From a virus (Duplodnaviria; Caudoviricetes), in the IMG/VR virus record IMGVR_UViG_3300014205_000174: 64,000 nt of DNA; one strand, written 5' to 3'. Shown piece by piece: positions 10,962 to 52,469 of this stretch. The notes beneath the pieces were generated by a model. That model saw only the letters and a program-made list of their open reading frames with translations, had not been told where the DNA came from and did no database searches. The translations under genes and the position numbers were made by a program. The number at the start of each line of letters is the position of its first letter. The stretch's first letter is position 1.

Positions 10962-11078
10962 TTTTTTTTACTGTTTGTAGGAACCGCTAAACGGGCTGTG
11001 TTTTTCCCTATCATGACTTATTTGACCTTCTAATAAAAAGGCTTTACTATGGTTTGCTGTTTCCATTTTACTTAATAA

Positions 11079-11094
11079 AGCAAATTACGTGCCA
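11079..11094 (-). promoter_or_regulatory. Sigma-54-type promoter
   Basis: TGGCACG-TAAT-TTGCT, intergenic, facing the - strand operon. Confidence 0.75.
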
Positions 11095-11098
11095 AATT

Positions 11099-11124
11099 AA
11101 AAAACCCCACCTTTCGGCGGGGTT
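11099..11124 (-). terminator. Intrinsic terminator
   Basis: AACCCCGCC-GAAA-GGTGGGGTT followed by a T-run on the - strand. Confidence 0.65.
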
Positions 11125-11265
11125 AAGTGCTGCTGAGCAGCAAGACGGAGCACTCGTATAGTTACCTAAAAATAAGTTTCGTTTTTCCAATAAAGGATGA
11201 GTAGTAAAACAAATATAGTTAAACATTACGAAACTAATTCAATAAAATGTATTAAATTTGGTAAC

Positions 11266-12459
11266 ATGCAATTAGTTGAGCGACATATTTTTGTAGGCAA
11301 TAAGGCGATGGAGCAAATCTGTCACAATGCCGGTTTGTTGCAAAACTTCACTAATTACCATATCAAGCAAGCGGTCTTAGGTTACCAGGAGCGCTTTTCG
11401 GAATATGAGTTTACGGGACTATGCGCTGAGTTCAGCCAACCGGACTACAAGAATCTACCCGCACAAACTGCGCAGCAGGTTGTAAAGAAGGTATTTAAGA
11501 ATTGGAAAGGTTTTTTTGCGGCAATGAAAGCCCGTACAAAAGACCCTTCTAAATTCAAAGGAAAGCCTAAGTACCCCGGATATAAGAAGGGTAAAAAGCT
11601 GGCCCTTGTTACGTTCACGAGCCAGCAGATAAAAATAAAAGACGGATATATTCATTTCCCTAAAGCCACGAATATAGAGCCTGTCAAGACGCTGCATGAC
11701 AACATAGCGCAGGTGCGATTAAGTCCGCAAACAGGATGCATCATTGCCGAAGTTGTCTACGAGCAGCAAGAAGTTAAAGCCCCTGCCGATGAAAAGCTTT
11801 TTTTAAGTATAGATTTGGGGGTAAACAATTTAGCTACCGCAATCAGTAATACAGGCTTACCGCCTTTTATTATCAACGGGAAGCAGCTAAAATCAGTTAA
11901 TCAGTTCTATAACAAGAAGAAAGCAGAACTACAAACCCATATAGGCGGCAAAGGCGCATCCCGCCGCATTAATTTACTTACGTTCAGGCGTAACAAAATA
12001 GTTGAAGATTACCTGCATAAGACCAGTAGCTATATTGTTGACTACTGCGTAAAGAACAAAATCAGCATTATCGTCGTAGGGAAAAATAAACAGTGGAAAA
12101 CGAACATAAATATTGGTAAGGTAAACAACCAGAATTTTGTTCAGATTCCGCATGCGAAGCTAATTGGTAAATTAGCATACAAAGCGCAACTGGTGGGTAT
12201 AAAAATCGTGGAGCAGGAGGAGAGCTACACTAGTAAGGTAGACCATTTGGCGGGAGAAAAGATGGAGCATCACGAAAGGTATTCAGGGACAAGGGTGTCG
12301 CGCGGTCTGTTTAAAAGCGCTACAGGCAAAGTGCTGAATGCGGACGTAAATGGGGCCATAGGCATAGCGTTAAAATCAAATGTAGCTGACGAGTCATTCG
12401 TAAAAATGATAGTTAGTAGAGGCCTTGCGTTTAGGCCATGCAAAATTTGCTTTTGCTAA
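11266..12459 (+). CDS. tnpB: IS200/IS605-family RNA-guided endonuclease TnpB (no tnpA adjacent)
   Basis: MQLVERH start, RuvC-I SIDLGVNN, VVGKNKQWK, EESYTSK, RuvC-III NADVNGA; TAAATTTG -7 element at 11253-11260. Confidence 0.92.
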   Translation: MQLVERHIFVGNKAMEQICHNAGLLQNFTNYHIKQAVLGYQERFSEYEFTGLCAEFSQPDYKNLPAQTAQQVVKKVFKNWKGFFAAMKARTKDPSKFKGKPKYPGYKKGKKLALVTFTSQQIKIKDGYIHFPKATNIEPVKTLHDNIAQVRLSPQTGCIIAEVVYEQQEVKAPADEKLFLSIDLGVNNLATAISNTGLPPFIINGKQLKSVNQFYNKKKAELQTHIGGKGASRRINLLTFRRNKIVEDYLHKTSSYIVDYCVKNKISIIVVGKNKQWKTNINIGKVNNQNFVQIPHAKLIGKLAYKAQLVGIKIVEQEESYTSKVDHLAGEKMEHHERYSGTRVSRGLFKSATGKVLNADVNGAIGIALKSNVADESFVKMIVSRGLAFRPCKICFC

Positions 12460-27018: not shown

Positions 27019-28035
27019 CTACGATGAAAAATACCGGAATCCACCCTCTGCATGCTTATTATCCCGGAACCACTCTTCCACCTGGTCGGTGAGGCCCTGT
27101 AGAGTAGTTGCATCGAGCGTACTGTACTGGCTCCAATCGGTCATGGCCATCATAGCGGACATGATAAGGTTTTTCACCTCTACTTCATGGAACCGCTCTG
27201 ATTTTCCTTTATCCTTGGCAAGTTTTTTGGCTGTAATTCTTATCGCAGGGCCGCTATCCGAAGAAATATCCATACCGGATGGGCCGGACGTCTTTGTGTT
27301 GTCTTTGCGGGTTGGGATATCATCATCGGCACCAAACAACATGAGCGCAGCAGATACGTTACCCGGCTTTCCTGCGGCTATCTTTTCTTTTTCAAAGTCG
27401 ATAGCATCCACTATCATCTTTTCAACCTCCGCAGGGGTATTGTTTTTCAGCATTTTTATTATCTGCGTTTCCGCTACCACATCCTCAATTATAAGGTTGC
27501 GCAATGCAGGCCCGGCAGTAAGCAGGCTAAAGCAATTCCTAACGTGCGTAATTGACTTTTTGCGCTTGTGGGCGATATCTTCCTGGCTATAACCCATTTC
27601 ACTAAGACGCGCATATACAACCGCCTCCTCAAGTATAGTATTAGGGACACCGCCGGTGTTTTCCTCCAACTGGCTAAACAGCCTTTCATCTTCACTCTCG
27701 GGATTATCAACGATTACACGGATGCGAAAGGTATCGGGATTAAGCAGCAGCCTCTCTATACCCAACTTAACGGCCAGGTAGCGCCTGTTCCCCTGCTTTA
27801 CCTTGAAGTTTTCCGAACCTCTTACGCGGTATACAGAAAGTGGCTTTAAAACTTTCCCGGCAGCAACAATGGAATACATCAACTCTTCTATATCCTTATA
27901 CTTTATGCGGATATTGTCTTCAGGGGCAAATATCAATTGCTTAAAAAGCACGTGCCATACATCCGTTCTTGGCGTTTTGGTTATTACGGCGGCAGTAGCC
28001 TGCTCTTCCGGTATCGTAGTTTGCATTTCCGACAT
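27019..28035 (-). CDS. ParB/Srx N-terminal domain protein with HTH
   Basis: NIR...IEELM.SI...G.VLKPL.V, G.RRY.A, EEA..Y.RL...G.SQEDIA. Confidence 0.8.
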   Translation of the reverse strand: MSEMQTTIPEEQATAAVITKTPRTDVWHVLFKQLIFAPEDNIRIKYKDIEELMYSIVAAGKVLKPLSVYRVRGSENFKVKQGNRRYLAVKLGIERLLLNPDTFRIRVIVDNPESEDERLFSQLEENTGGVPNTILEEAVVYARLSEMGYSQEDIAHKRKKSITHVRNCFSLLTAGPALRNLIIEDVVAETQIIKMLKNNTPAEVEKMIVDAIDFEKEKIAAGKPGNVSAALMLFGADDDIPTRKDNTKTSGPSGMDISSDSGPAIRITAKKLAKDKGKSERFHEVEVKNLIMSAMMAMTDWSQYSTLDATTLQGLTDQVEEWFRDNKHAEGGFRYFSS

Positions 28036-28076
28036 AAACTTGGTTTTGAATTTTTCGTTTGATTTTACTTAACATG

Positions 28077-28092
28077 CGCAAATAGCGTGCCA
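28077..28092 (-). promoter_or_regulatory. Sigma-54-type promoter
   Basis: TGGCACG-CTAT-TTGCG upstream of the parB-like gene. Confidence 0.75.
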
Positions 28093-28137
28093 TATTTTAA
28101 AATAACGTAAATAAATATTTATAGCCCTTTTGATGTT

Positions 28138-28153
28138 TGGCATAGAAATTGAC
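28138..28153 (+). promoter_or_regulatory. Sigma-54-type promoter (degenerate), divergent partner
   Basis: TGGCATA-GAAA-TTGAC upstream of ATG 28189. Confidence 0.45.
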
Positions 28154-28188
28154 ATGTTTATGATTATGAATCAATTTTCACAGTTTTT

Positions 28189-28431
28189 ATGGAACAGACA
28201 ATAGTAAATAACAACCAGAGTGCACCCAGCACTGAATTAATGAAAGCAAGGCTGGTTATGATAAATCAACTTAGTGCCGCCCAGGAGTGCACTGAGCGGT
28301 CGATAGCGCTTAATAAAATGGAATTCGTGAAGTACCTGCTTCAGAAGTTCCCGGACACAGGGGCCAGGATAAACGAAAGCGAAGAGTACAGCGAGTTTCT
28401 TACCAAACAACAGACTAACAACGGACAATAA
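28189..28431 (+). CDS. Hypothetical protein
   Basis: First gene of a three-gene + strand operon. Confidence 0.6.
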   Translation: MEQTIVNNNQSAPSTELMKARLVMINQLSAAQECTERSIALNKMEFVKYLLQKFPDTGARINESEEYSEFLTKQQTNNGQ

Positions 28432-28432
28432 T

Positions 28433-28705
28433 ATGGGCTTTATAATTAAATACCTGCCTGGTGGTGAACCGCTCCCGGATAAAGGAAAGGATTTTGTCTT
28501 AATGCAGAAAGCCTCTGGCCGGATTATTAATCCACCCGATGAATTCCAGGAAGGCCTGGTATGTATCCTGCATGACGAAGATACCGATAAAGCGGTATTC
28601 TGCTTCTCGGAAGGAGAGATGGCCTATTACCTTGAATACGTACACAAGCAAAAAACATGGTTAATCGTCCCTGATGCCGCTGAAATAGCCGTGGCTGGGT
28701 CATAA
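28433..28705 (+). CDS. Hypothetical protein
   Basis: Tightly spaced ORF. Confidence 0.6.
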   Translation: MGFIIKYLPGGEPLPDKGKDFVLMQKASGRIINPPDEFQEGLVCILHDEDTDKAVFCFSEGEMAYYLEYVHKQKTWLIVPDAAEIAVAGS

Positions 28706-28714
28706 TATTGCAGC

Positions 28715-29059
28715 ATGGCTACAGAAAGAAACATCATCGGTTATAAGTACAAGGTCATCGGCTCTGATGGACTGATTCCCGTTAACGCGAAGTACCTGCA
28801 TGAAGAGACAACCCGCAGGGATATAGACCTTGTGTCTATTGAATTCCTGGTAGGCCATGCTATTCTCGAGCCTGTATACGATACTTCCAACGAGAAAAAG
28901 GTCGAACCAGACGAAGAGCTTGTCATCCTAAAGGCAAAGCATGATATCTTGTGTGAACTCTGGGTTCCAGAGAGCTCCCATGATACCCATATCAAAATAG
29001 GCGAACTGGTTAGAAAATACGCATCCCAGATACTAGACAGAGGCGGCTCCATTATATAA
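28715..29059 (+). CDS. Hypothetical protein
   Basis: Ends 5 nt from the convergent tRNA-Tyr. Confidence 0.6.
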   Translation: MATERNIIGYKYKVIGSDGLIPVNAKYLHEETTRRDIDLVSIEFLVGHAILEPVYDTSNEKKVEPDEELVILKAKHDILCELWVPESSHDTHIKIGELVRKYASQILDRGGSII

Positions 29060-29063
29060 GTTG

Positions 29064-29149
29064 TGGGTGTGGCGAGATTCGAACTCGCTGTGTTTCTTAT
29101 GTACCGGTGTTACAGACCGGCGCAACTCCCCCGTCGTTGCCGCACACCC
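29064..29149 (-). tRNA. tRNA-Tyr (GUA)
   Basis: GGGTGTG/CACACCC acceptor, CCGGT-CTGTAAC-ACCGG, long variable region, TTCGAAT; CCA not encoded. Confidence 0.9.
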
Positions 29150-29176
29150 ATTTTTTTACATCATTCACTTACTTAC

Positions 29177-29267
29177 TGGCGGAAAGCAGTGCGCACGATG
29201 CACATTGACCAGCGGCCAACCATCAGTTTAGCAAACTGAGCCACCCCCTCCGGGTGATTTACTTTCC
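29177..29267 (-). tRNA. tRNA-Ser (GCU), 8/4-type cloverleaf
   Basis: GGAAAGTA/TGCTTTCC 8-bp acceptor, TCAGT-TTGCTAA-ACTGA, long variable arm, 4-bp T-stem GTGC/GCAC, ends GCCA. Confidence 0.8.
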
Positions 29268-29274
29268 TTACCTG

Positions 29275-29363
29275 CGGAAACGACGAGAATCCAACTCGTA
29301 CATCAACTCATCGCTGACCTCATGGTTTTCAAGACCACGTACCTCAGCCCATTGGGCGTTTCC
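29275..29363 (-). tRNA. tRNA-Ser (UGA), atypical D-arm and T-loop
   Basis: GGAAACG/CGTTTCC, GTGGT-CTTGAAA-ACCAT, ACGAG-TTGGATT-CTCGT, G73; D-stem does not fold canonically. Confidence 0.7.
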
Positions 29364-29373
29364 ATTTTTACTG

Positions 29374-29460
29374 TACCTGGGGCCGGCTTCGAACCGGCAC
29401 GACCATTACTGGTCACTGAGTTTTAAGCCCAGCGCGTGCTGCCAATTTCGCCACCCAGGC
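29374..29460 (-). tRNA. tRNA-Leu (UAA)
   Basis: CTGGG-CTTAAAA-CTCAG, long variable arm, GCCGG-TTCGAAG-CCGGC, A73. Confidence 0.92.
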
Positions 29461-29473
29461 AAATTATTCACTG

Positions 29474-29555
29474 TGGCAATTAAAGGATTCGAACCTCTAC
29501 ACCTCTCGGTACCGCTTTTTGAGTGCGGCGCGTCTACCAATTTCGCCAAACTGCC
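29474..29555 (-). tRNA. tRNA-Leu (CAA)
   Basis: CCGCA-CTCAAAA-AGCGG, TGGCGAAATTGGTAGACGC D-arm, TTCGAAT. Confidence 0.92.
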
Positions 29556-29563
29556 TATTTACG

Positions 29564-29645
29564 TGCCCTCCGAGGGGGTCGAACCCTCATGACCGAAGTC
29601 GCTGGAACCTAAATCCAGTGTGTCTCCCAGTTCCACCAGGAGGGC
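29564..29645 (-). tRNA. tRNA-Leu (UAG)
   Basis: GCCCTCC/GGAGGGC, CTGGA-TTTAGGT-TCCAG, GAGGG-TTCGACC-CCCTC. Confidence 0.93.
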
Positions 29646-29654
29646 ATAACCCAT

Positions 29655-29695
29655 AAACAAAAATCCCCGCTCGGAAGGAGCAGGGATTTTTGTTT
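29655..29695 (-). terminator. Attenuator terminator upstream of the Leu/Ser/Tyr tRNA cluster
   Basis: ATCCCTGCTC-CTTCC-GAGCGGGGAT then TTTTGTTT, between leader ORF and first tRNA. Confidence 0.85.
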
Positions 29696-29713
29696 TAATT
29701 GTATATTTTAGTT

Positions 29714-29788
29714 CTATACAGTCATAACATACCCTGCTCGTTCCGACAACGAGAGATATAATGAACTATATAGAGTTACTTGTTTCAT
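29714..29788 (-). CDS. 24-aa attenuator leader peptide MKQVTLYSSLYLSLSERAGYVMTV
   Basis: Codons 6-15 CTA TAT AGT TCA TTA TAT CTC TCG TTG TCG; contains antiterminator 29732-29746. Confidence 0.85.
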   Translation of the reverse strand: MKQVTLYSSLYLSLSERAGYVMTV

Positions 29789-29792
29789 CCTG

Positions 29793-29800
29793 CAAATGTA
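29793..29800 (-). promoter_or_regulatory. Bacteroidota housekeeping-sigma -7 element
   Basis: TACATTTG (TAnnTTTG), 4 nt before the leader ATG; context AAAAAGTATTACTACATTTGCA resembles that at 30265. Confidence 0.75.
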
Positions 29801-29839
29801 GTAATACTTTTTAAACGAAAAAACTTTATTTTACTATTG

Positions 29840-29915
29840 AGGCCAGGGAGAGAATTCAACTCTCGTTATATGCGTTTTGCAGACGCACCCCTATCACAAC
29901 ATTGGGTACCTGGCC
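29840..29915 (-). tRNA. tRNA-Cys (GCA)
   Basis: GGCCAGG/CCTGGCC, TGCGT-CTGCAAA-ACGCA, U73; T-loop TTGAATT atypical. Confidence 0.85.
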
Positions 29916-29926
29916 ATTATTATGTG

Positions 29927-29997
29927 CACGGGCGATAAGAATCGAACTTACCACAAACGGTTTTGGAGACCGCTTCGCCGCCTTAGCATGCGCCCGT
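29927..29997 (-). tRNA. tRNA-Trp (CCA)
   Basis: ACGGGCG/CGCCCGT, GCGGT-CTCCAAA-ACCGT, TTCGATT, G73. Confidence 0.88.
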
Positions 29998-30000
29998 ATG

Positions 30001-30071
30001 TGGTGCGTACAAGAATCGAACTTGTGTAGCTGGGTCTTCAAGCCAGTGACTAACCATTCATCCAACGCACC
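30001..30071 (-). tRNA. tRNA-Phe (GAA)
   Basis: GGTGCGT/ACGCACC, loop TTGAAGA, ACAAG-TTCGATT-CTTGT, A73. Confidence 0.85.
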
Positions 30072-30079
30072 ATGTAAAC

Positions 30080-30112
30080 AAAAAAAATCCCGCCGTGGTA
30101 TACCAGGCGGGA
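30080..30112 (-). terminator. Attenuator terminator upstream of the Phe/Trp/Cys tRNA cluster
   Basis: TCCCGCC-TGGTATACCAC-GGCGGGA then T8. Confidence 0.88.
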
Positions 30113-30134
30113 GGAGTATTAAACGAATACGCTT

Positions 30135-30209
30135 TTACACAATGATTCGCCCGCTGGTTACGTTACTAAACCAACAGAAAGTCGAAGTCATTGTTACAGT
30201 GTATCTCAT
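30135..30209 (-). CDS. 24-aa attenuator leader peptide MRYTVTMTSTFCWFSNVTSGRIIV
   Basis: Codons 11-14 TTC TGT TGG TTT; contains antiterminator ACCAGCGGG 30150-30158. Confidence 0.85.
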   Translation of the reverse strand: MRYTVTMTSTFCWFSNVTSGRIIV

Positions 30210-30264
30210 GATTTTTAAAAATTAAAGAAAATGCTCACAATAGCTGTGCTCAAATTCTCCAGTG

Positions 30265-30272
30265 CAAAAGTA
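30265..30272 (-). promoter_or_regulatory. Bacteroidota housekeeping-sigma -7 element
   Basis: TACTTTTG in AAAAAACATTACTACTTTTGCA. Confidence 0.75.
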
Positions 30273-30426
30273 GTAATGTTTTTTAATCAATCAACTATTT
30301 CACCAAATTTTATTTTTAAGCCGGATTTTTCTGAAATAAATTCACGCATCAACTCCCAAGACGACAACGCCCTCACCTTACCGTTTCGCTCTTTTCTTAT
30401 CCACTTAATTGTTGCAGGAATGAAGA

Positions 30427-30570
30427 CCGTTCTACAAAACCTATCCAAATCTATCCAAAGACAGGTTTGGTGTTTGTTTACTGTTTCACAGCGGGGCTAT
30501 GTAGCATTTCTGCTACAGAACTCCACGCTCCACAGTCTTTCACGGCAGAACTTGCCGCATAACCGCCTAT
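30427..30570 (-). mobile_element. Putative tnpB right end / omegaRNA region (IS607-like, ends ...GTAGAACGG)
   Basis: Follows and overlaps the tnpB 3' end; TGTAGCA-GAAA-TGCTACA hairpin; TTTGGATAG repeat; terminal GG. Confidence 0.5.
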
Positions 30571-31320
30571 CGGTTGTTTATCTTGTTTTTCTTTTTTCTC
30601 GTATTTATGCGCGTGCTTTACCGGGTACTGTTCCAGGTTCACGCTCGCAGTATTGTCTCGCTGGTGGTGGGTGTTGCATATATCGCAGTCCCACTCACGG
30701 TCGCTTAGCTTAAGGTTCTGGTTTATATGCCCGCAGTGGCTGCATAGTTTACTGCTTGGGAAGAACCTGTCGACTACCGTTATTTTACACCCATACCATA
30801 GTCCCTTGTATTCCAATTGCCTGCGGAACTCGTAGAAGCTCCCGTTGGCTATGTGTTTACTGAGGTTATGGTTCTTCAGCATGCCAGAGACATTCAAATT
30901 CTCAATAACTACCTCGCTGTGGTTTTTAGCAAGGTAGGTAGTCAGTTTATGAAGGCCGTCAAGGCGATGGTCGGAGATGTGCTTATGTATTTTAGCTATT
31001 TTATTGCACTGCTTCTTGTAGTTGCTACTCCTCGGCGCTTTATCGTCCTTGAGCAGCTTCCATACTTCCACTACCTCCCAGTCCATAATATCAGACGGAT
31101 ATATACCCATTGGCATCGGGTACAGACGCCTGCTTCCTGGTTGCCCAGGCGCATCCGGAGAAACCCACCAGTCGCCCATCATAGAACCAACAAGCCACAC
31201 CTGTTTTTCTACAGGCCCTGGGTGCATGCAATAGTCGATATAAAGCTGGTGGACTACGTCTGGCAGCTCCACCTTTATGGCTTTGAGATTCGTTTCTTCA
31301 GGTAGTTCTTTTACGAGCAT
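30478..31320 (-). CDS. Chimera: unrelated ~90-aa N-terminus fused to C-terminal half of TnpB
   Basis: Retains VVIENLNV (RuvC-II), FPSSKLCSHC..CDIC Zn finger and RDNTAS (RuvC-III); lacks N-terminal lobes and RuvC-I. Confidence 0.8.
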   Translation of the reverse strand: MLVKELPEETNLKAIKVELPDVVHQLYIDYCMHPGPVEKQVWLVGSMMGDWWVSPDAPGQPGSRRLYPMPMGIYPSDIMDWEVVEVWKLLKDDKAPRSSNYKKQCNKIAKIHKHISDHRLDGLHKLTTYLAKNHSEVVIENLNVSGMLKNHNLSKHIANGSFYEFRRQLEYKGLWYGCKITVVDRFFPSSKLCSHCGHINQNLKLSDREWDCDICNTHHQRDNTASVNLEQYPVKHAHKYEKKEKQDKQPIGGYAASSAVKDCGAWSSVAEMLHSPAVKQ

Positions 31321-31339
31321 GTTTTTATCTTATTAATTA

Positions 31340-31981
31340 CTACCGTCTTTTTTTTATTTTGGAAACTTCTATTTTAACCAAATCAAAGTTGTCGTCTTGC
31401 ATAAATAATGAATTTGCTTTAAACGCTTTTTTCATCATCGCTATATCAATGTAGTCCCAGTTAATATTTTCTAACTTATTTAGTATTATTACCGACTTTC
31501 CGGTAATTTTTTCTTTTACCGCTCTTTCGCACATGCCATTGAATATTACAGGCGCGCCCATTCTGGGGTCTCCACACAACGGGATAAGGGAAGAGGTGGC
31601 GTAAATCTCATCTGCATCTTTTACCGCCTGCCAGGTGCTTTCCAAGTTATGCCATGCGCGGTCAAGCACCTTGGAAAATACCCTGTCGACACATTCCAGC
31701 CCCTGCTCTTTTGCGAAATCCAACACCTCCCTTTGTGCGCTCCTGAACTCACTGGCATGTAAAATGTCTGATTCGATGTATATTCTTATTTTGATGCCGC
31801 TTTTAGCTTCGCTGGTATCGGCCTTATATTCACTGGTTGCCAGACATTCTTTACAGTTTGCCAGTTCGGGGGATACTGAGATTTCTTCATTGTCCTTATG
31901 CGTGTGAACGTTCTTGCCACATACTGATGTGTAAGTGTAATCGCCGTTGTAGCCAGTTCTTGAATAGTGTACGATTTTCAT
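31340..31981 (-). CDS. Hypothetical protein with N-terminal C/H motif
   Basis: H...CG...CKEC. Confidence 0.6.
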   Translation of the reverse strand: MKIVHYSRTGYNGDYTYTSVCGKNVHTHKDNEEISVSPELANCKECLATSEYKADTSEAKSGIKIRIYIESDILHASEFRSAQREVLDFAKEQGLECVDRVFSKVLDRAWHNLESTWQAVKDADEIYATSSLIPLCGDPRMGAPVIFNGMCERAVKEKITGKSVIILNKLENINWDYIDIAMMKKAFKANSLFMQDDNFDLVKIEVSKIKKRR

Positions 31982-36402: not shown

Positions 36403-37614
36403 ATGAACATAACCATATTCGGCAAAGAAATAATAGATGAATCGACCATCATCCAGTTGCAAAACTGCATGGTAGATAATGCAATAGGCGTAATTACCGC
36501 CGACGCCCATAAGGGCTACTCCATGCCGGTTGGCGGGTGCATAGCCTACAAGGATATGATATCCCCGTCAGGCGTCGGATATGATATCGCATGTGGAAAT
36601 ATGGCCGTGCAAACCAATGTACTGGCCTCAGACATTAATGCCAGCCATGTAATGAATGAGATTGCACGACTTATATCTTTTGGTGTGGGCCGCCCAAACA
36701 ATGAGCCGGTAGACCATGAGGTGCTTGATAAGATATCTCAATCGAACTTTGCACCACAGCGCAAAATGGCACAGTTGGCCAAGAGCCAGTTGGGTACCGT
36801 CGGAAGCGGGAATCATTTCGTAGATATTTTCAAAGACGAAAATGGCTTAATCTGGATAGGCGTACACTTCGGCTCCCGTGGCTTCGGCCATAAGACAGCG
36901 TCAGGGTTTATGTCCATGGCCCAGGGGCTTGATTTCGATGAACGTGCCAAAGGCGAGTCCATGGATGCGCCACCTACGCTTTTCGCCACCAATACAGAAC
37001 TGGGGCAAGCTTATATAGACGCTATGAACCTTTGCGGGGAATACGCCTATGCGGGCCGGGAGACCGTTATCAATAAAGTATTGGGCATACTGGGTAATCC
37101 GGAAGTTACTTTCTCCGTACACAACCACCATAATTTCGCATGGAAGGAAAACCACTTTGGTGAAGACTACTGGGTAGTACGAAAAGGATGCACACCTGCC
37201 TTTCCAGGCCAACGAGGTTTTATCGGGGCCAACATGCGCGACATATCCGTTATCGTGGAAGGTGTAGATACGGAACAATCCCGTAATGGCCTGTATTCTA
37301 CCGTACACGGAGCGGGCCGCATTTTATCGCGCACACAGGCTGCCGGAAAGAAGAAGTGGGTCAAGGGGGCGGATGGCAAAAAAAAGCCCGTAACGGTTGG
37401 CAAGGGCGTTATTGACTTTGACCAGGTACGTCACGAACTCACAGAACGCAATGTTGAATTACGCGGAGCTGGTGCCGATGAGGCCCCCGGATGTTACAAG
37501 AACCTGTCAGACGTCTTAGCCTACCAAGGAGACACAATCAAGATACTGCATAAGCTTACGCCAATTGGCGTGGCCATGGCCGGAGGTAATGAATTTGACC
37601 CTTATAAAGACTAA
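36403..37614 (+). CDS. rtcB: RtcB family RNA ligase
   Basis: DAH.GY..PVG, VGYDIACG, QLGTVGSGNHF, HFGSRG.G, HHN, RKG.T, HGAGR..SR, DEAP.CYK. Confidence 0.95.
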   Translation: MNITIFGKEIIDESTIIQLQNCMVDNAIGVITADAHKGYSMPVGGCIAYKDMISPSGVGYDIACGNMAVQTNVLASDINASHVMNEIARLISFGVGRPNNEPVDHEVLDKISQSNFAPQRKMAQLAKSQLGTVGSGNHFVDIFKDENGLIWIGVHFGSRGFGHKTASGFMSMAQGLDFDERAKGESMDAPPTLFATNTELGQAYIDAMNLCGEYAYAGRETVINKVLGILGNPEVTFSVHNHHNFAWKENHFGEDYWVVRKGCTPAFPGQRGFIGANMRDISVIVEGVDTEQSRNGLYSTVHGAGRILSRTQAAGKKKWVKGADGKKKPVTVGKGVIDFDQVRHELTERNVELRGAGADEAPGCYKNLSDVLAYQGDTIKILHKLTPIGVAMAGGNEFDPYKD

Positions 37615-42129: not shown

Positions 42130-43407
42130 TTAGCTTTTGGAGAGCGGGTTTAGGTTAGAGACCCTCCTTGGACGAACTACAACGCCCTGTATCCCATCGG
42201 CAAATGCGTTAGGGAATACCTTTCTGATAATATTGCCACTGCCATTACAGTCGGCATTAATCAACAAGCCATCTTTGCTCACAAACAAACCGCGCTTCAC
42301 CCGCTTACCAAGGTATTTATCCTGATGTTGTACCGGTTCATTGTCGATGAAGCTGCATTTGCTGGTGTGTGACTCTTCAACAAGAATCACGTCTATACCA
42401 ACCATATCAGCCTTGTACTGCAACATACCGACGAATCTCGCATGCGGAATCTGCACGAAGTTCTGGTTGTTTTTATCGCCGAGGTTGATTTGCTGCTTCC
42501 AGCCGATGTTCTTGCCAATAACCAGCGTTCCGATGTCGTTACTCACCAGGTGCTGCACAATGTACTTGCTTGCGCAATGCAGGTAATGGTCAATCTTGCT
42601 GTTGCGCTTTTCGGTCATCCGTCTGATTCTCTTTGATGTGCCAGTGCCAATAAGCGATTTCAGTCTTGCCAGTTTTTTGTTATAATAAGCGTTGATGCTC
42701 TTTAGCGCCCTGCCGTTAATGAGTAAGGGTGTCACCCCCTCTGCATTTGATGTTACAGCCGCAAGGTTGTCTACGCCGATATCTATGCCCGCTATGTTTT
42801 GTTTGAGCAGGCTTCGTATTACCTCCTTTGGTTTAATGTATACTATTTCTATTGTATAAAACCCGCATTCAGGCACTATGCGTACCTGCTGTATATTCTT
42901 TTGCTTTGTTGGTATTCTTATCATAGTGCCCGATAAGGATACGATGCTTTTCTCTAACGCCGTCTTTGATATAGCCTGTATGGTATAGGTGAGCACGTTG
43001 CGCCCATGGGCTTTGTCCTTATACTTAGGCAGGGCTGGCTGTCCGGTAAACTTATCCTTATTGGCCGACCATACCTTAATGGCGGTAAAGAATGACTTCC
43101 AGTTTTTATCAAGCAGCATTAATACCTGCTGGCTGACCTTGGCGGGGAGCGCCGTGTAGTCCGATTGCTTCTCATTCTGTAGCTGCTTTTGCAGGTCGCT
43201 GTACCGGAGCCAGAGCGCATGCTCCCGCTTGCCTTCCAGTTTCTCTTTACCGCTATCAATAAACAACTGACGGATACGGTAATTAGCGGCATTATACAGA
43301 TTCTTGGACAGAAAGCACAACCTGTCTATTTCTTCGAAATGAACATGACCGGCACCTATCTTATGCCGCTCAACCAATGTTATGCTATTCCCGCTTTTAT
43401 CCTTCAT
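42130..43407 (-). CDS. tnpB: IS200/IS605-family TnpB (no tnpA adjacent)
   Basis: LVERH, SKNLYNAANY, GIDIGVDN, VIGKNIGWKQ, EESHTSK, NADCNG; TATATTTG -7 element at ~43420. Confidence 0.92.
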   Translation of the reverse strand: MKDKSGNSITLVERHKIGAGHVHFEEIDRLCFLSKNLYNAANYRIRQLFIDSGKEKLEGKREHALWLRYSDLQKQLQNEKQSDYTALPAKVSQQVLMLLDKNWKSFFTAIKVWSANKDKFTGQPALPKYKDKAHGRNVLTYTIQAISKTALEKSIVSLSGTMIRIPTKQKNIQQVRIVPECGFYTIEIVYIKPKEVIRSLLKQNIAGIDIGVDNLAAVTSNAEGVTPLLINGRALKSINAYYNKKLARLKSLIGTGTSKRIRRMTEKRNSKIDHYLHCASKYIVQHLVSNDIGTLVIGKNIGWKQQINLGDKNNQNFVQIPHARFVGMLQYKADMVGIDVILVEESHTSKCSFIDNEPVQHQDKYLGKRVKRGLFVSKDGLLINADCNGSGNIIRKVFPNAFADGIQGVVVRPRRVSNLNPLSKS

Positions 43408-43434
43408 GTTGCAATACATCAAATATACAAAATC

Positions 43435-43450
43435 CGGCACGATTGTTGCA
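43435..43450 (+). promoter_or_regulatory. Sigma-54-type promoter
   Basis: CGGCACG-ATTG-TTGCA, restarting the + strand operon after tnpB. Confidence 0.65.
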
Positions 43451-51055: not shown

Positions 51056-52469
51056 TTATAAAATCAAATCCTCGTCTTTGTTGTACATTAAATTCGGTCG
51101 TTTGTTGTATGTATCCGAACTGTGCTTGTCCGGAAAACTACTTTTTTGTTCCCCACCTGGCCTCTTACTATCCCGCCTATCTACCCACCTCGTCTCGTCA
51201 ATTTCCTGCGCAATGCCGGCCCTGAATAAGTCCAGCCCGAATACTGGCACATGGAAGAACTCTTTGCGCAGATAATCAACAATTACGTAGGAAGCCATGT
51301 CTATATGCTCTATCAGGTGCTGGATATACTCATCGAGCTTAAAGTCACCATCCTCTTCAAATTTCTCACCCATAAGAGAAAACAACCGCTTCACAATATC
51401 TATGTCAATTTTAGTCAGCGGTTTCATGAACATCACACACTGCCTGTCAATAACCGCATGCATGGTCTTCAGGCCCACGCGGCCTATACGCCAGCCTCCA
51501 TCCTTTGCCTTATACTTACACGGACACCCCCAATACTTGCCGTATATCTTCTCCAGCGTGAATGGGTATATTTTTTCGCTTATGTTGGTTATCATTGACG
51601 ATTGTATATTTAATTGAAAACTTTTCTCATGGGTGTGGTATTGAATTTGCGAGGTTTAGTAAGTTTTTTCTATATTTCTCAAGTGCGCGACAAAGTGCCA
51701 CGAGTGCATTATCTTCTTTGTGCTCGTAAGCGTAGATTTCATACTGCGGGTTCATGGCATTGGTATTGGCGCTGTGGCAAATATTAAGTTTTCCAATATC
51801 GCCGAAAGATACCGACTTCCCATTATCAACTGCGTCAAGGCAGTATCCGGAGCGGCTTTTAAATCTTACCGACTTTCTTTTTATCTTCTTGTCACCCATG
51901 ATGTACGAAAACTTAACTAGGCAAATATCTACCGGTATGCGCCTATTATCTAGCTTGCGGTCTATAGTGAACTCTGTAAAATCTGTTACCTGTGCGCTAT
52001 TTTCCATATCTTATGCTTTTTTGTTTTTTTATAATCCACCATCCCTTGCATTGCGCCTTGCTCTATAACCTCCGTCAAGCGGGTGTAGCATTCGCTCATA
52101 CCTTCTATGCATGGCACCGGCGTCAACACGCTTCCCTTTCGGCTCTGTAATGATGGGTGCAATATTTGTTGGAATGGCAAACCCATTGTACAGAGCAAAT
52201 TCAATTTTCCCATCCTCTTCAGGGAAAGCCCAGTACAATCCCGGATGAATTGGAATAACCTTGGCAAATTTCCAAGCTAATTCAGCATCCCACCAAGCGT
52301 TCCACATAAGGTTACCACCAGCGTGACGCATTGCGTATGTCATTTTAAAGGGTGGCCGGACATCACCTTCCCGTATTTCTTTTACACCGTTAATGCTTCT
52401 TATAAGATATCCCTTGTTTGCCATACTAAAACATAATTCTGGTAAAATATTAAACTCCCTGTTTTCCAA
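51056..52469 (-). other. Three unrelated phage hypothetical ORFs (51056-51595, 51627-52007, 52029-52469) inside the glycan cluster
   Basis: No sugar-enzyme motifs; 51056 resembles family B (DYLR...AGIA). Confidence 0.6.

Follow-up and report, generated by a model that had tools for sequence, protein, structure and literature searches.

A phage tRNA operon behind a candidate leader-peptide attenuator matched to its own Leu, Ser and Tyr tRNAs

The virus record IMGVR_UViG_3300014205_000174 (Caudoviricetes) carries, on the minus strand of the 64,000-nucleotide (nt) stretch that was analysed (hereafter the window), six tRNA genes specific for Leu (three), Ser (two) and Tyr, preceded at positions 29655-29800 by an element that combines a short open reading frame (ORF), a run of ten Leu, Ser or Tyr codons and an intrinsic terminator. 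We consider it likely that this element is a leader-peptide transcription attenuator feeding back on tRNA supply and that it controls the six-gene tRNA operon. An initial annotation, made from the letters alone, had proposed such an attenuator, and every feature that the proposal predicts at the sequence level (the ORF, its control block, the terminator and an antiterminator with two partners) was found.

Results

The leader ORF consists of 24 codons followed by TAG and encodes the peptide MKQVTLYSSLYLSLSERAGYVMTV (M K Q V T L Y S S L Y L S L S E R A G Y V M T V stop; coordinates of all features are collected in Table 1). Its codons 6-15 read CTA TAT AGT TCA TTA TAT CTC TCG TTG TCG, exactly the strings and coordinates that had been annotated. 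The block that they encode, LYSSLYLSLS, is the single longest Leu/Ser/Tyr run among the 127,996 codons in the six frames of the window and sits 110 nt ahead of tRNA genes for precisely these three amino acids. Given the frequency of Leu/Ser/Tyr codons in the window (0.217), runs of at least ten are expected 0.023 times per whole 64-kilobase (kb) window and about 3e-5 times in the ~150 nt ahead of this Leu/Ser/Tyr tRNA block, and the probability of such a run in a 23-residue peptide is P = 4e-6. All six anticodons named in the initial annotation (Leu-UAG, Leu-CAA, Leu-UAA, Ser-UGA, Ser-GCU and Tyr-GUA) are present: ARAGORN with default settings leaves a 223-nt gap between tRNA-Leu (UAA) and tRNA-Tyr, and both Ser tRNAs are placed in that gap at a score threshold of 90%. 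The match between the leader and its tRNAs is thus evident at the level of amino acids; at the level of isoacceptors, discussed below, it is suggestive.

Three alternative helices can be drawn in the leader RNA. In the minimum free energy (MFE) fold, region 1 (~29774-29748), which holds control codons, pairs with region 2 (~29742-29713), and a terminator hairpin (3:4) forms downstream; the whole leader folds at -51.7 kcal/mol against -27.0 +/- 3.5 kcal/mol in shuffled sequences (z = -7.0). The 1:2 hairpin had been annotated as CTCGTT/AACGAG; the hairpin itself is real, its extent (29780-29710) being much greater than those six pairs. Region 2 lies within the ORF, 15 nt upstream of the stop, and has a second partner: as annotated, the antiterminator segment TCGGAACGAGCAGGG (29746-29732) pairs at 14 of its 15 positions with CCCTGCTCCTTCCGA (29685-29671), which comprises the terminator 5' arm and loop. 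The RNAduplex energy of this helix is -21.0 kcal/mol against -7.5 +/- 2.1 kcal/mol for dinucleotide shuffles of the leader, none of 300 being as good, and the segment clearly prefers its own terminator over those of six other units (-8.5 to -12.1 kcal/mol). The terminator follows the leader after a 23-nt A-rich spacer, its stem is followed by TGTTT, and its U-tract ends 9 nt ahead of tRNA-Leu (UAG), which leaves no room for another promoter. A consensus terminator scan missed both terminators of the window, that of this unit and that of a sister unit described below, probably because an A/U extension of the stem uses up the T-run.

Folding under ribosome-footprint constraints, put forward in the initial annotation as a check, switched the structure in the expected direction for a ribosome on codons 6-12, although in the window itself the outcome would depend on kinetics (see Discussion). 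These calculations assume a 30-nt ribosome footprint, a transcript that ends before the terminator 3' arm and equilibrium energies. With the A site on any of codons 6-12, the 2:3 antiterminator is predicted at -22 to -27 kcal/mol; only three 2:3 pairs remain once the A site has reached codon 14, and none at codon 16 or 20. The switch is clean in the corresponding unit of a related contig (L013, see below) and in the sister unit: both fold into the 1:2 hairpin with region 3 free when the ribosome has arrived at the stop codon and also when none is present, which is the textbook behaviour.

The ParB-like protein encoded 1 kb downstream of the tRNA region (27019-28035) was used to find relatives: among 5.8 billion proteins only six were detected, with 55-59% identity, and a word search of proteins, also when a profile was used, yielded no more than 7 ParB relatives. 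The relatives' contigs (L001-L007, L010-L013 and L115) come from NCBI, JGI and Logan assemblies. L013 contains the same -7 promoter box TACATTTG as the window, four bases, an ATG, the leader MKQVVSLYSSLYLSLNKRAGYIVSV and a terminator, followed by tRNAs Leu-UAG, Leu-UAA, Ser-UGA, Ser-GCU and Tyr; L005 and L006 contain the leader MKQFVSLSSLSYLLLKWRAGNAISV and a terminator, followed by Leu-UAG, Leu-CAA, Leu-UAA, Ser-UGA, Ser-GCU and Tyr. In the three lineages (window, L013 and L005) the control block is exactly ten codons long and made of Leu, Ser and Tyr only, in different orders, although the ParB of L013 and L005 is only about 58% identical. The start codon ATG, the reading frame and the closing GTA TAG are retained, and the sole indel within the ORF is of 3 nt. 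A block that is reordered yet restricted to the same set points to selection on set membership in a translated frame rather than on a particular peptide or RNA sequence. The terminator stem is conserved in L013 and L005, and so is the capacity to form the alternative structures: across the three homologs, 91% of alignment cells are paired in the 1:2 hairpin (39-52% in slid controls), 92.6% in the form combining 1:2 and the terminator and 88.9% in the antiterminator (39-53% in slid controls). One antiterminator pair covaries, from A-U in the window to G-C in L005, with an A-C mismatch in L013. The lineages that lack the Leu/Ser block (L010-L012 and L001-L004) also lack the Leu/Ser/Tyr leader; in L010 (5900-8920), and also in L011 and L012, a 615-residue ORF of no known family stands in place of the Leu/Ser block and the leader, and tRNA-Tyr stays.

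Further relatives were sought in several collections. Scans of IMG/VR with the ParB-like protein, the terminator sequence and two leader patterns returned none; two matches to the Phe-Cys-Trp-Phe (FCWF) pattern in IMG/VR lie inside genes with no tRNAs and were discarded as chance. A scan of JGI/ENA metagenomes with the ParB alignment and one of the GTDB genomes also gave no relatives. A second metagenome scan, with the pattern TACATTTGCA-NN-ATGAAACAA, gave 101 matches, none with a Leu/Ser/Tyr leader. The INPHARED phage collection contains no close relative, only similarity at the level of tRNAs. An exhaustive search of representatives brought up ParB proteins of greater divergence; in their contigs (L116 and L117) there are no tRNA-sized gaps between called genes, no tRNA scan having been made.

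The relative L005 extends the pattern well beyond Leu, Ser and Tyr. Between positions 1540 and 8850 it contains four units (a to d) of the same layout, with unrelated leader sequences, each before its own tRNA set. The four sets (KVRMGEIA, PDNTQH, WFC and LSY) do not overlap and jointly cover all 20 amino acids. When the longest run was computed for each leader against each tRNA set, the matrix was strictly diagonal, with 9, 17, 4 and 10 residues for matched pairs and at most 6 off the diagonal; the run probabilities of units a to d are 4e-3, 5e-10, 3e-3 and 4e-6. In units a and b, moreover, two codon families each are represented for Arg, Gly, Ile and Gln. All 13 units that we examined have a terminator of -17 to -23 kcal/mol and, in the ORF downstream of the control block, a segment complementary to the terminator 5' arm; this complementarity is significant at the 3% level or better for units a, b and d, whereas for unit c of the relatives it is less marked, 17-38 of 300 shuffles doing as well.

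The window itself contains a second unit, directly upstream of the first and homologous to unit c of the relatives; the minus strand thereby holds two adjacent tRNA blocks, Phe/Trp/Cys and then Leu (three), Ser (two) and Tyr. The sister unit lies directly ahead of tRNA-Phe, Trp and Cys, its leader MRYTVTMTSTFCWFSNVTSGRIIV contains Phe-Cys-Trp-Phe, and its folding behaviour is like that of the Leu/Ser/Tyr unit. The FCWF run alone is not rare, nine comparable runs occurring in the window; it is kept in relatives whose remaining leader residues differ.

A comparable layout exists in an unrelated phage. In Caulobacter phage phiCbK (NC_019405.1; L118), an annotated 45-residue hypothetical protein, gp335, is followed by an annotated rho-independent terminator and then by tRNAs Pro, Pro, Thr, Lys, Lys, Leu (three), His, Ala and Ser (three); past the initial MF, 41 of the 43 residues of gp335 belong to the downstream tRNA set. 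Elsewhere in the genome, at 51341-51439, lies an unannotated 32-codon ORF (MSKTYRQFVRQIQVVRNIR...), which again has an annotated terminator behind it and then a tRNA block that begins with Phe, Val, Ile, Ile, Val, Gln and Gln and continues with others. Judged by sequence, gp335 and the 32-codon ORF look like attenuator leader peptides. The succession that phiCbK shares with the window comprises a promoter, a leader ORF composed of the amino acids that the tRNAs behind it carry, a terminator and finally the tRNA genes; phiCbK differs in lineage, host, promoter and leader sequence. The phiCbK genome paper (PMC3556154) makes no mention of attenuation or leaders.

The start of the Leu/Ser/Tyr transcript is suggested by a box, TACATTTG, that is invariant in the three lineages and conforms to TAnnTTTG, the -7 box of the Bacteroidota primary sigma factor, which is accompanied by TTTG near -33 (PMC7366714). 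The ATG lies 4 nt past this box, as annotated, and type-d and type-b units without exception retain the 4-base spacing. The corresponding box of Flavobacterium psychrophilum lies at positions -12 to -5 (PMC9723704), which places the predicted +1 on the A of the ATG, at 29788; the suggestion of the initial annotation that the mRNA is leaderless therefore fits the published position of the flavobacterial box, and we predict by this analogy that transcription starts on the start codon. Leaderless mRNAs are a minority in the phylum: they make up 5.5% in F. psychrophilum (PMC9723704), and 5' untranslated regions (UTRs) shorter than 10 nt account for ~3.7% in Bacteroides thetaiotaomicron (PMC7366714). 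The type-a and type-c units have A-rich 5' UTRs with no Shine-Dalgarno sequence, which is also typical of the phylum. A sigma-70-type promoter match inside the leader (29725-29698) was set aside: 9 of 12 matching positions is the background level, and Bacteroidota lack that promoter type (PMC7366714). At the same 4-nt distance from a TACATTTGCA box, a 10-codon mini-ORF, MKQQCFKISA, starts in L015, L018, L024 and about 20 other contigs from human-gut metagenomes; this mini-ORF may represent a further case of leaderless regulation in gut Bacteroidota.

Table 1. Features of the Leu/Ser/Tyr unit, its sister unit and the comparable units of L005 and phiCbK (window coordinates unless another contig is named)
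Feature	Position	Strand	Basis or remark
-33-like element TTTT	29820..29823	-	19 nt upstream of -7 box; by analogy with Bacteroidota sigma-A consensus
-7 box TACATTTG, Bacteroidota sigma-A type TAnnTTTG	29793..29800	-	invariant in three lineages
Leader ORF, 24 codons + TAG, peptide MKQVTLYSSLYLSLSERAGYVMTV	29714..29788	-	ATG 29788, TAG 29716-29714
1:2 hairpin, control codons vs rest of ORF	29710..29780	-	MFE and centroid folds; stop codon at stem base
Control block, codons 6-15 (all Leu/Ser/Tyr)	29744..29773	-	5' arm (region 1) of 1:2 hairpin
Region 2 antiterminator segment TCGGAACGAGCAGGG	29732..29746	-	pairs with region 1 or with terminator 5' arm + loop
Intrinsic terminator, stem AAAATCCCTGCTC / GAGCGGGGATTTT, loop CTTCC (29690-29660), U-tract to 29655	29655..29690	-	-19.1 kcal/mol
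tRNA-Leu (UAG)	29563..29645	-	ARAGORN; Rfam tRNA 46.6 bits; begins 9 nt past U-tract
tRNA-Leu (CAA)	29473..29555	-	default ARAGORN; Rfam tRNA
tRNA-Leu (UAA)	29373..29460	-	default ARAGORN; Rfam tRNA
tRNA-Ser (UGA)	29276..29367	-	ARAGORN only at 90% threshold; weak Rfam tRNA-clan match
tRNA-Ser (GCU), atypical	29177..29267	-	ARAGORN at 90% threshold only
tRNA-Tyr (GUA)	29063..29149	-	default ARAGORN
Sister attenuator unit (candidate), directly upstream	30080..30272	-	type-c homolog of relatives' unit c
Sister -7 box TACTTTTG	30272-30265	-	sequence
Sister leader MRYTVTMTSTFCWFSNVTSGRIIV, Phe-Cys-Trp-Phe at 30179-30168	30209-30135	-	sequence
Sister antiterminator segment AACCAGCGGGC	30159-30149	-	pairing with terminator arm
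Sister terminator (30112-30088) with U-tract to 30080	30112-30080	-	fold
tRNA-Phe, tRNA-Trp, tRNA-Cys	29839..30071	-	ARAGORN; behind sister unit
L005 unit a, leader MQNRRNMIIMVEAGKPG...			tRNAs Lys Val Arg Met Arg Met Gly Gly Glu ... Ile Ala
L005 unit b, leader MKFNQQHTQNQQQPNPTQDTG...			tRNAs Pro Asp Asn Thr Gln Gln His
L005 unit c, leader ...NFTSFCWFGK...			tRNAs Trp Phe (Trp) Cys Cys
L005 unit d, Leu/Ser/Tyr leader			tRNAs Leu Leu Leu Ser Ser Tyr
phiCbK candidate leader regions (gp335; 32-codon ORF)	L118 3541-3792 and 5342-5520

The window is part of a 211,455-base-pair contig whose genes include DnaB, the ParB-like protein, RtcB and TnpB-like transposases together with many small ORFs of no family, a content typical of a very large phage or phage-like element. 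The promoter type alone points to a Bacteroidota-type host. The RtcB tRNA-splicing ligase is encoded at 36403-37614 (plus strand), 7 kb from the tRNA blocks, and in relatives an RNA ligase (PF09414) lies between the tRNA units that are preceded by leaders (L005 3534-4565; L010 1862-2899); these enzymes may fit a common theme of tRNA maintenance or repair. Two TnpB/Cas12f-like ORFs (OrfB_IS605 and TNB domains) are present at 30478-31320 and 42130-43440, both on the minus strand. The first is truncated (280 residues) and ends ~200 nt upstream of the sister-unit promoter, so that any guide-RNA remnant would abut that promoter. The 213-residue ORF upstream of the sister unit and the 232-residue ORF between the L005 tRNA units are not homologous. 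Among the relatives, the DnaB of L001 (19986 onward) is 1303 residues long with intein and homing-endonuclease domains, and L005 encodes an AcrVA2-like protein (PF26125) after ParB (11039-12256).

Discussion

A working model may be proposed from the arrangement of these features, in which the transcription start, leader translation, ribosome pausing and regulated read-through are what we infer. Host RNA polymerase would start at or beside the A of the AUG and a ribosome would translate the 24-codon leader. Were aminoacyl-tRNA for the Leu, Ser or Tyr codons 6-12 scarce, the ribosome would pause on region 1; region 2, thereby freed, would pair with the emerging terminator 5' arm, the terminator would be blocked and the polymerase would read into the Leu-UAG, Leu-CAA, Leu-UAA, Ser-UGA, Ser-GCU and Tyr-GUA genes. 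Under fast decoding, or if the leader were not translated, region 2 would be covered by the ribosome or re-captured by region 1, the terminator would form and transcription would end 9 nt before the first tRNA. Since the tRNA products would relieve the slow decoding that opened the gate, the unit would operate as a negative-feedback supply controller for type-II tRNAs.

Several observations weigh against this interpretation or some part of it. (i), the initial annotation had claimed that the match holds at the level of isoacceptors: each anticodon of the cluster does have a readable codon in the block, and this part of the claim stands, but the agreement is not significant alone and is statistically unsupported, ten Leu/Ser/Tyr codons covering six anticodons about 30% of the time by chance according to our estimate (~0.3). 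Moreover, the control codon CTC has no Watson-Crick or standard-wobble reader among the tRNAs of the cluster, and L013 has no tRNA-Leu (CAA) yet retains TTG in its leader. (ii), codons 13-15, including the TTG that had been assigned to Leu-CAA, are probably too near region 2 to signal. (iii), in the window the 1:2 and 2:3 helices are nearly isoenergetic before the terminator 3' arm exists, which means that the decision must be kinetic, 1:2 forming first unless a ribosome sits on region 1. (iv), antiterminator pairing is less stable in the relatives, at -12 kcal/mol in L013, where one position is an A-C mismatch, and at -15.6 kcal/mol in L005. (v), there are three independent homologs only and covariation is weak and not significant, with 3 two-sided changes, 44-77 of 500 shuffles being as good. 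(vi), the -33 element is imperfect in the window, TTTT standing at the aligned position where L013 and L005 have TTTG. Finally, no terminator separates the upstream Phe/Trp/Cys tRNAs from the leader promoter, and some of the leader RNA may therefore come from read-through past tRNA-Cys rather than from a leaderless mRNA.

It is tempting to speculate that the unit monitors damage to tRNAs, and we put this forward tentatively, as a possibility that falls short of an even chance. The element would then be an OR-gate whose inputs are the Leu, Ser and Tyr isoacceptors read by its effective codons. Through it the phage could sense a shortage of host tRNAs, whether the cause was host shut-off or a tRNA-cleaving defence such as PtuAB, and make exactly the lost set when required, with the RtcB ligase nearby as a partner; the four gates of the relatives would cover all 20 amino acids. 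The principle would then have emerged in phages that are unrelated, those of Bacteroidota-type hosts and those of Caulobacter. There is a precedent for the benefit of replacement, the tRNA-Tyr of phage T5 counteracting the tRNA-Tyr-degrading PtuAB of retron-Eco7 (PMC11555353). An attenuator that opened on slow decoding of Leu, Ser or Tyr codons would, we infer, supply replacement tRNAs only when needed.

The same hardware could also obey another signal, namely amino-acid starvation, tRNA charging, translation capacity or infection timing, with no specific sensing of tRNA abundance or damage. A ribosome paused for want of charged tRNA looks the same whatever the cause, classical attenuators respond to charging, and the sequence alone cannot separate tRNA loss, tRNA charging (or starvation) or infection timing as the input. 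We nevertheless regard this alternative as rather improbable: tRNAs, the genes under control, are unable to relieve amino-acid starvation, the four L005 units follow four separate tRNA sets and not one common starvation signal, and the surroundings include genes for tRNA repair or ligation (that of RtcB in the window, that of the RNA ligase among the relatives' units).

That the element regulates nothing, its hairpin being either a terminator of constant leakiness or a site of processing or insulation between two tRNA blocks, with a fortuitous ORF, seems very unlikely to us. The upstream tRNA block does reach the leader region without a terminator of its own, and the TAnnTTTG motif is not enriched in the window; against this stand the conservation in three lineages of the ORF, its frame and its set-restricted, reordered codon block, the small number of such runs expected by chance in the window (0.023), the four unrelated leaders each matching its own tRNA set, and the antiterminator complementarity, which would have no role.

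Two last alternatives are barely credible. Direct, translation-independent binding of tRNAs by codon-like triplets of the leader RNA, in the manner of a T-box, would agree with a tRNA-related output and with terminator/antiterminator alternatives, also a T-box hallmark, but Rfam gives no T-box or other riboswitch match in the region 28000-31500 even at E = 1, the ten triplets are consecutive and in frame with a conserved ATG and stop, the ORF indel is a multiple of three, and the control block is base-paired in the 1:2 hairpin instead of being displayed in a specifier loop. Nor does a functional micropeptide, for example a small hydrophobic membrane peptide whose composition matches the tRNAs incidentally, find much favour: LYSSLYLSLS is fairly hydrophobic and there are weak, sub-threshold Rfam matches to small toxin-antitoxin RNAs (ohsC, 40.4 bits; gathering score 50), but residue order is shuffled between lineages while set membership is kept, and other unit types encode hydrophilic blocks (e.g. 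NQQHTQNQQQPNPTQDT), which agree with their tRNAs just as well.

Discussions of phage tRNA genes mostly cast them as constitutive helpers of codon usage or as a counter to tRNA-cleaving defences, and to our knowledge the control of their expression has been little studied. If the attenuator interpretation is true, the phage monitors how fast individual codons are read and replenishes the tRNAs concerned, and classical attenuation, known from amino-acid biosynthesis, would reach the tRNA pool itself. The sorting of phage tRNA blocks by amino acid, each behind a terminator, would then be explained, annotators would have a rule for spotting unannotated leader ORFs, and synthetic biology would gain compact, modular sensors of single tRNA pools. 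The idea is directly testable in phiCbK, a cultured phage whose host, Caulobacter, is a model bacterium.

The closest mechanistic parallels are the enterobacterial leaders trpL, hisL, leuL, pheL, thrL and ilvL, in which, likewise, a short ORF with a run of control codons and an intrinsic terminator precede the regulated genes, and in which mutually exclusive 1:2, 2:3 and 3:4 helices are chosen by the position of the ribosome. The phage unit differs in that it would regulate tRNAs rather than enzymes, its product acting directly on the sensed step, and in that it mixes three amino acids, has a predicted leaderless mRNA and a Bacteroidota-type promoter and is borne by a phage; in addition, its region 2 lies inside the ORF before the stop, where that of trpL lies after the stop. 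Control by several amino acids is not in itself new, as multivalent attenuators such as those of ilvGMEDA (Leu/Val/Ile) and the thr operon (Thr/Ile) also read several per leader. The Rfam family of the latter, Thr_leader (RF00506), gives a sub-threshold match at 29656-29813 (31.7 bits, E = 0.003), far below its gathering score of 55, with no sequence homology, another codon set and other genes.

Attenuation of the translation apparatus also has a precedent, pheST of Escherichia coli, which responds through the pheM leader to the supply of the cognate aminoacyl-tRNA; pheST encodes a synthetase in a cellular genome and obeys a single amino acid, whereas the phage unit would regulate tRNA genes. 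T-box riboswitches likewise couple tRNA status to the expression of translation-related genes through a choice between terminator and antiterminator, but they bind one uncharged tRNA directly and without translation, where the phage unit implies an ORF and ribosome pausing. In the full-text literature, with subscription journals incompletely covered, we found no description of leader-peptide attenuators before tRNA genes. The mechanism proposed here is that of a classical attenuator; it is new in that it would act on tRNAs and so feed back directly, in that its block of several amino acids fits the genes behind it, in that its mRNA is predicted to be leaderless and in that it belongs to a phage.

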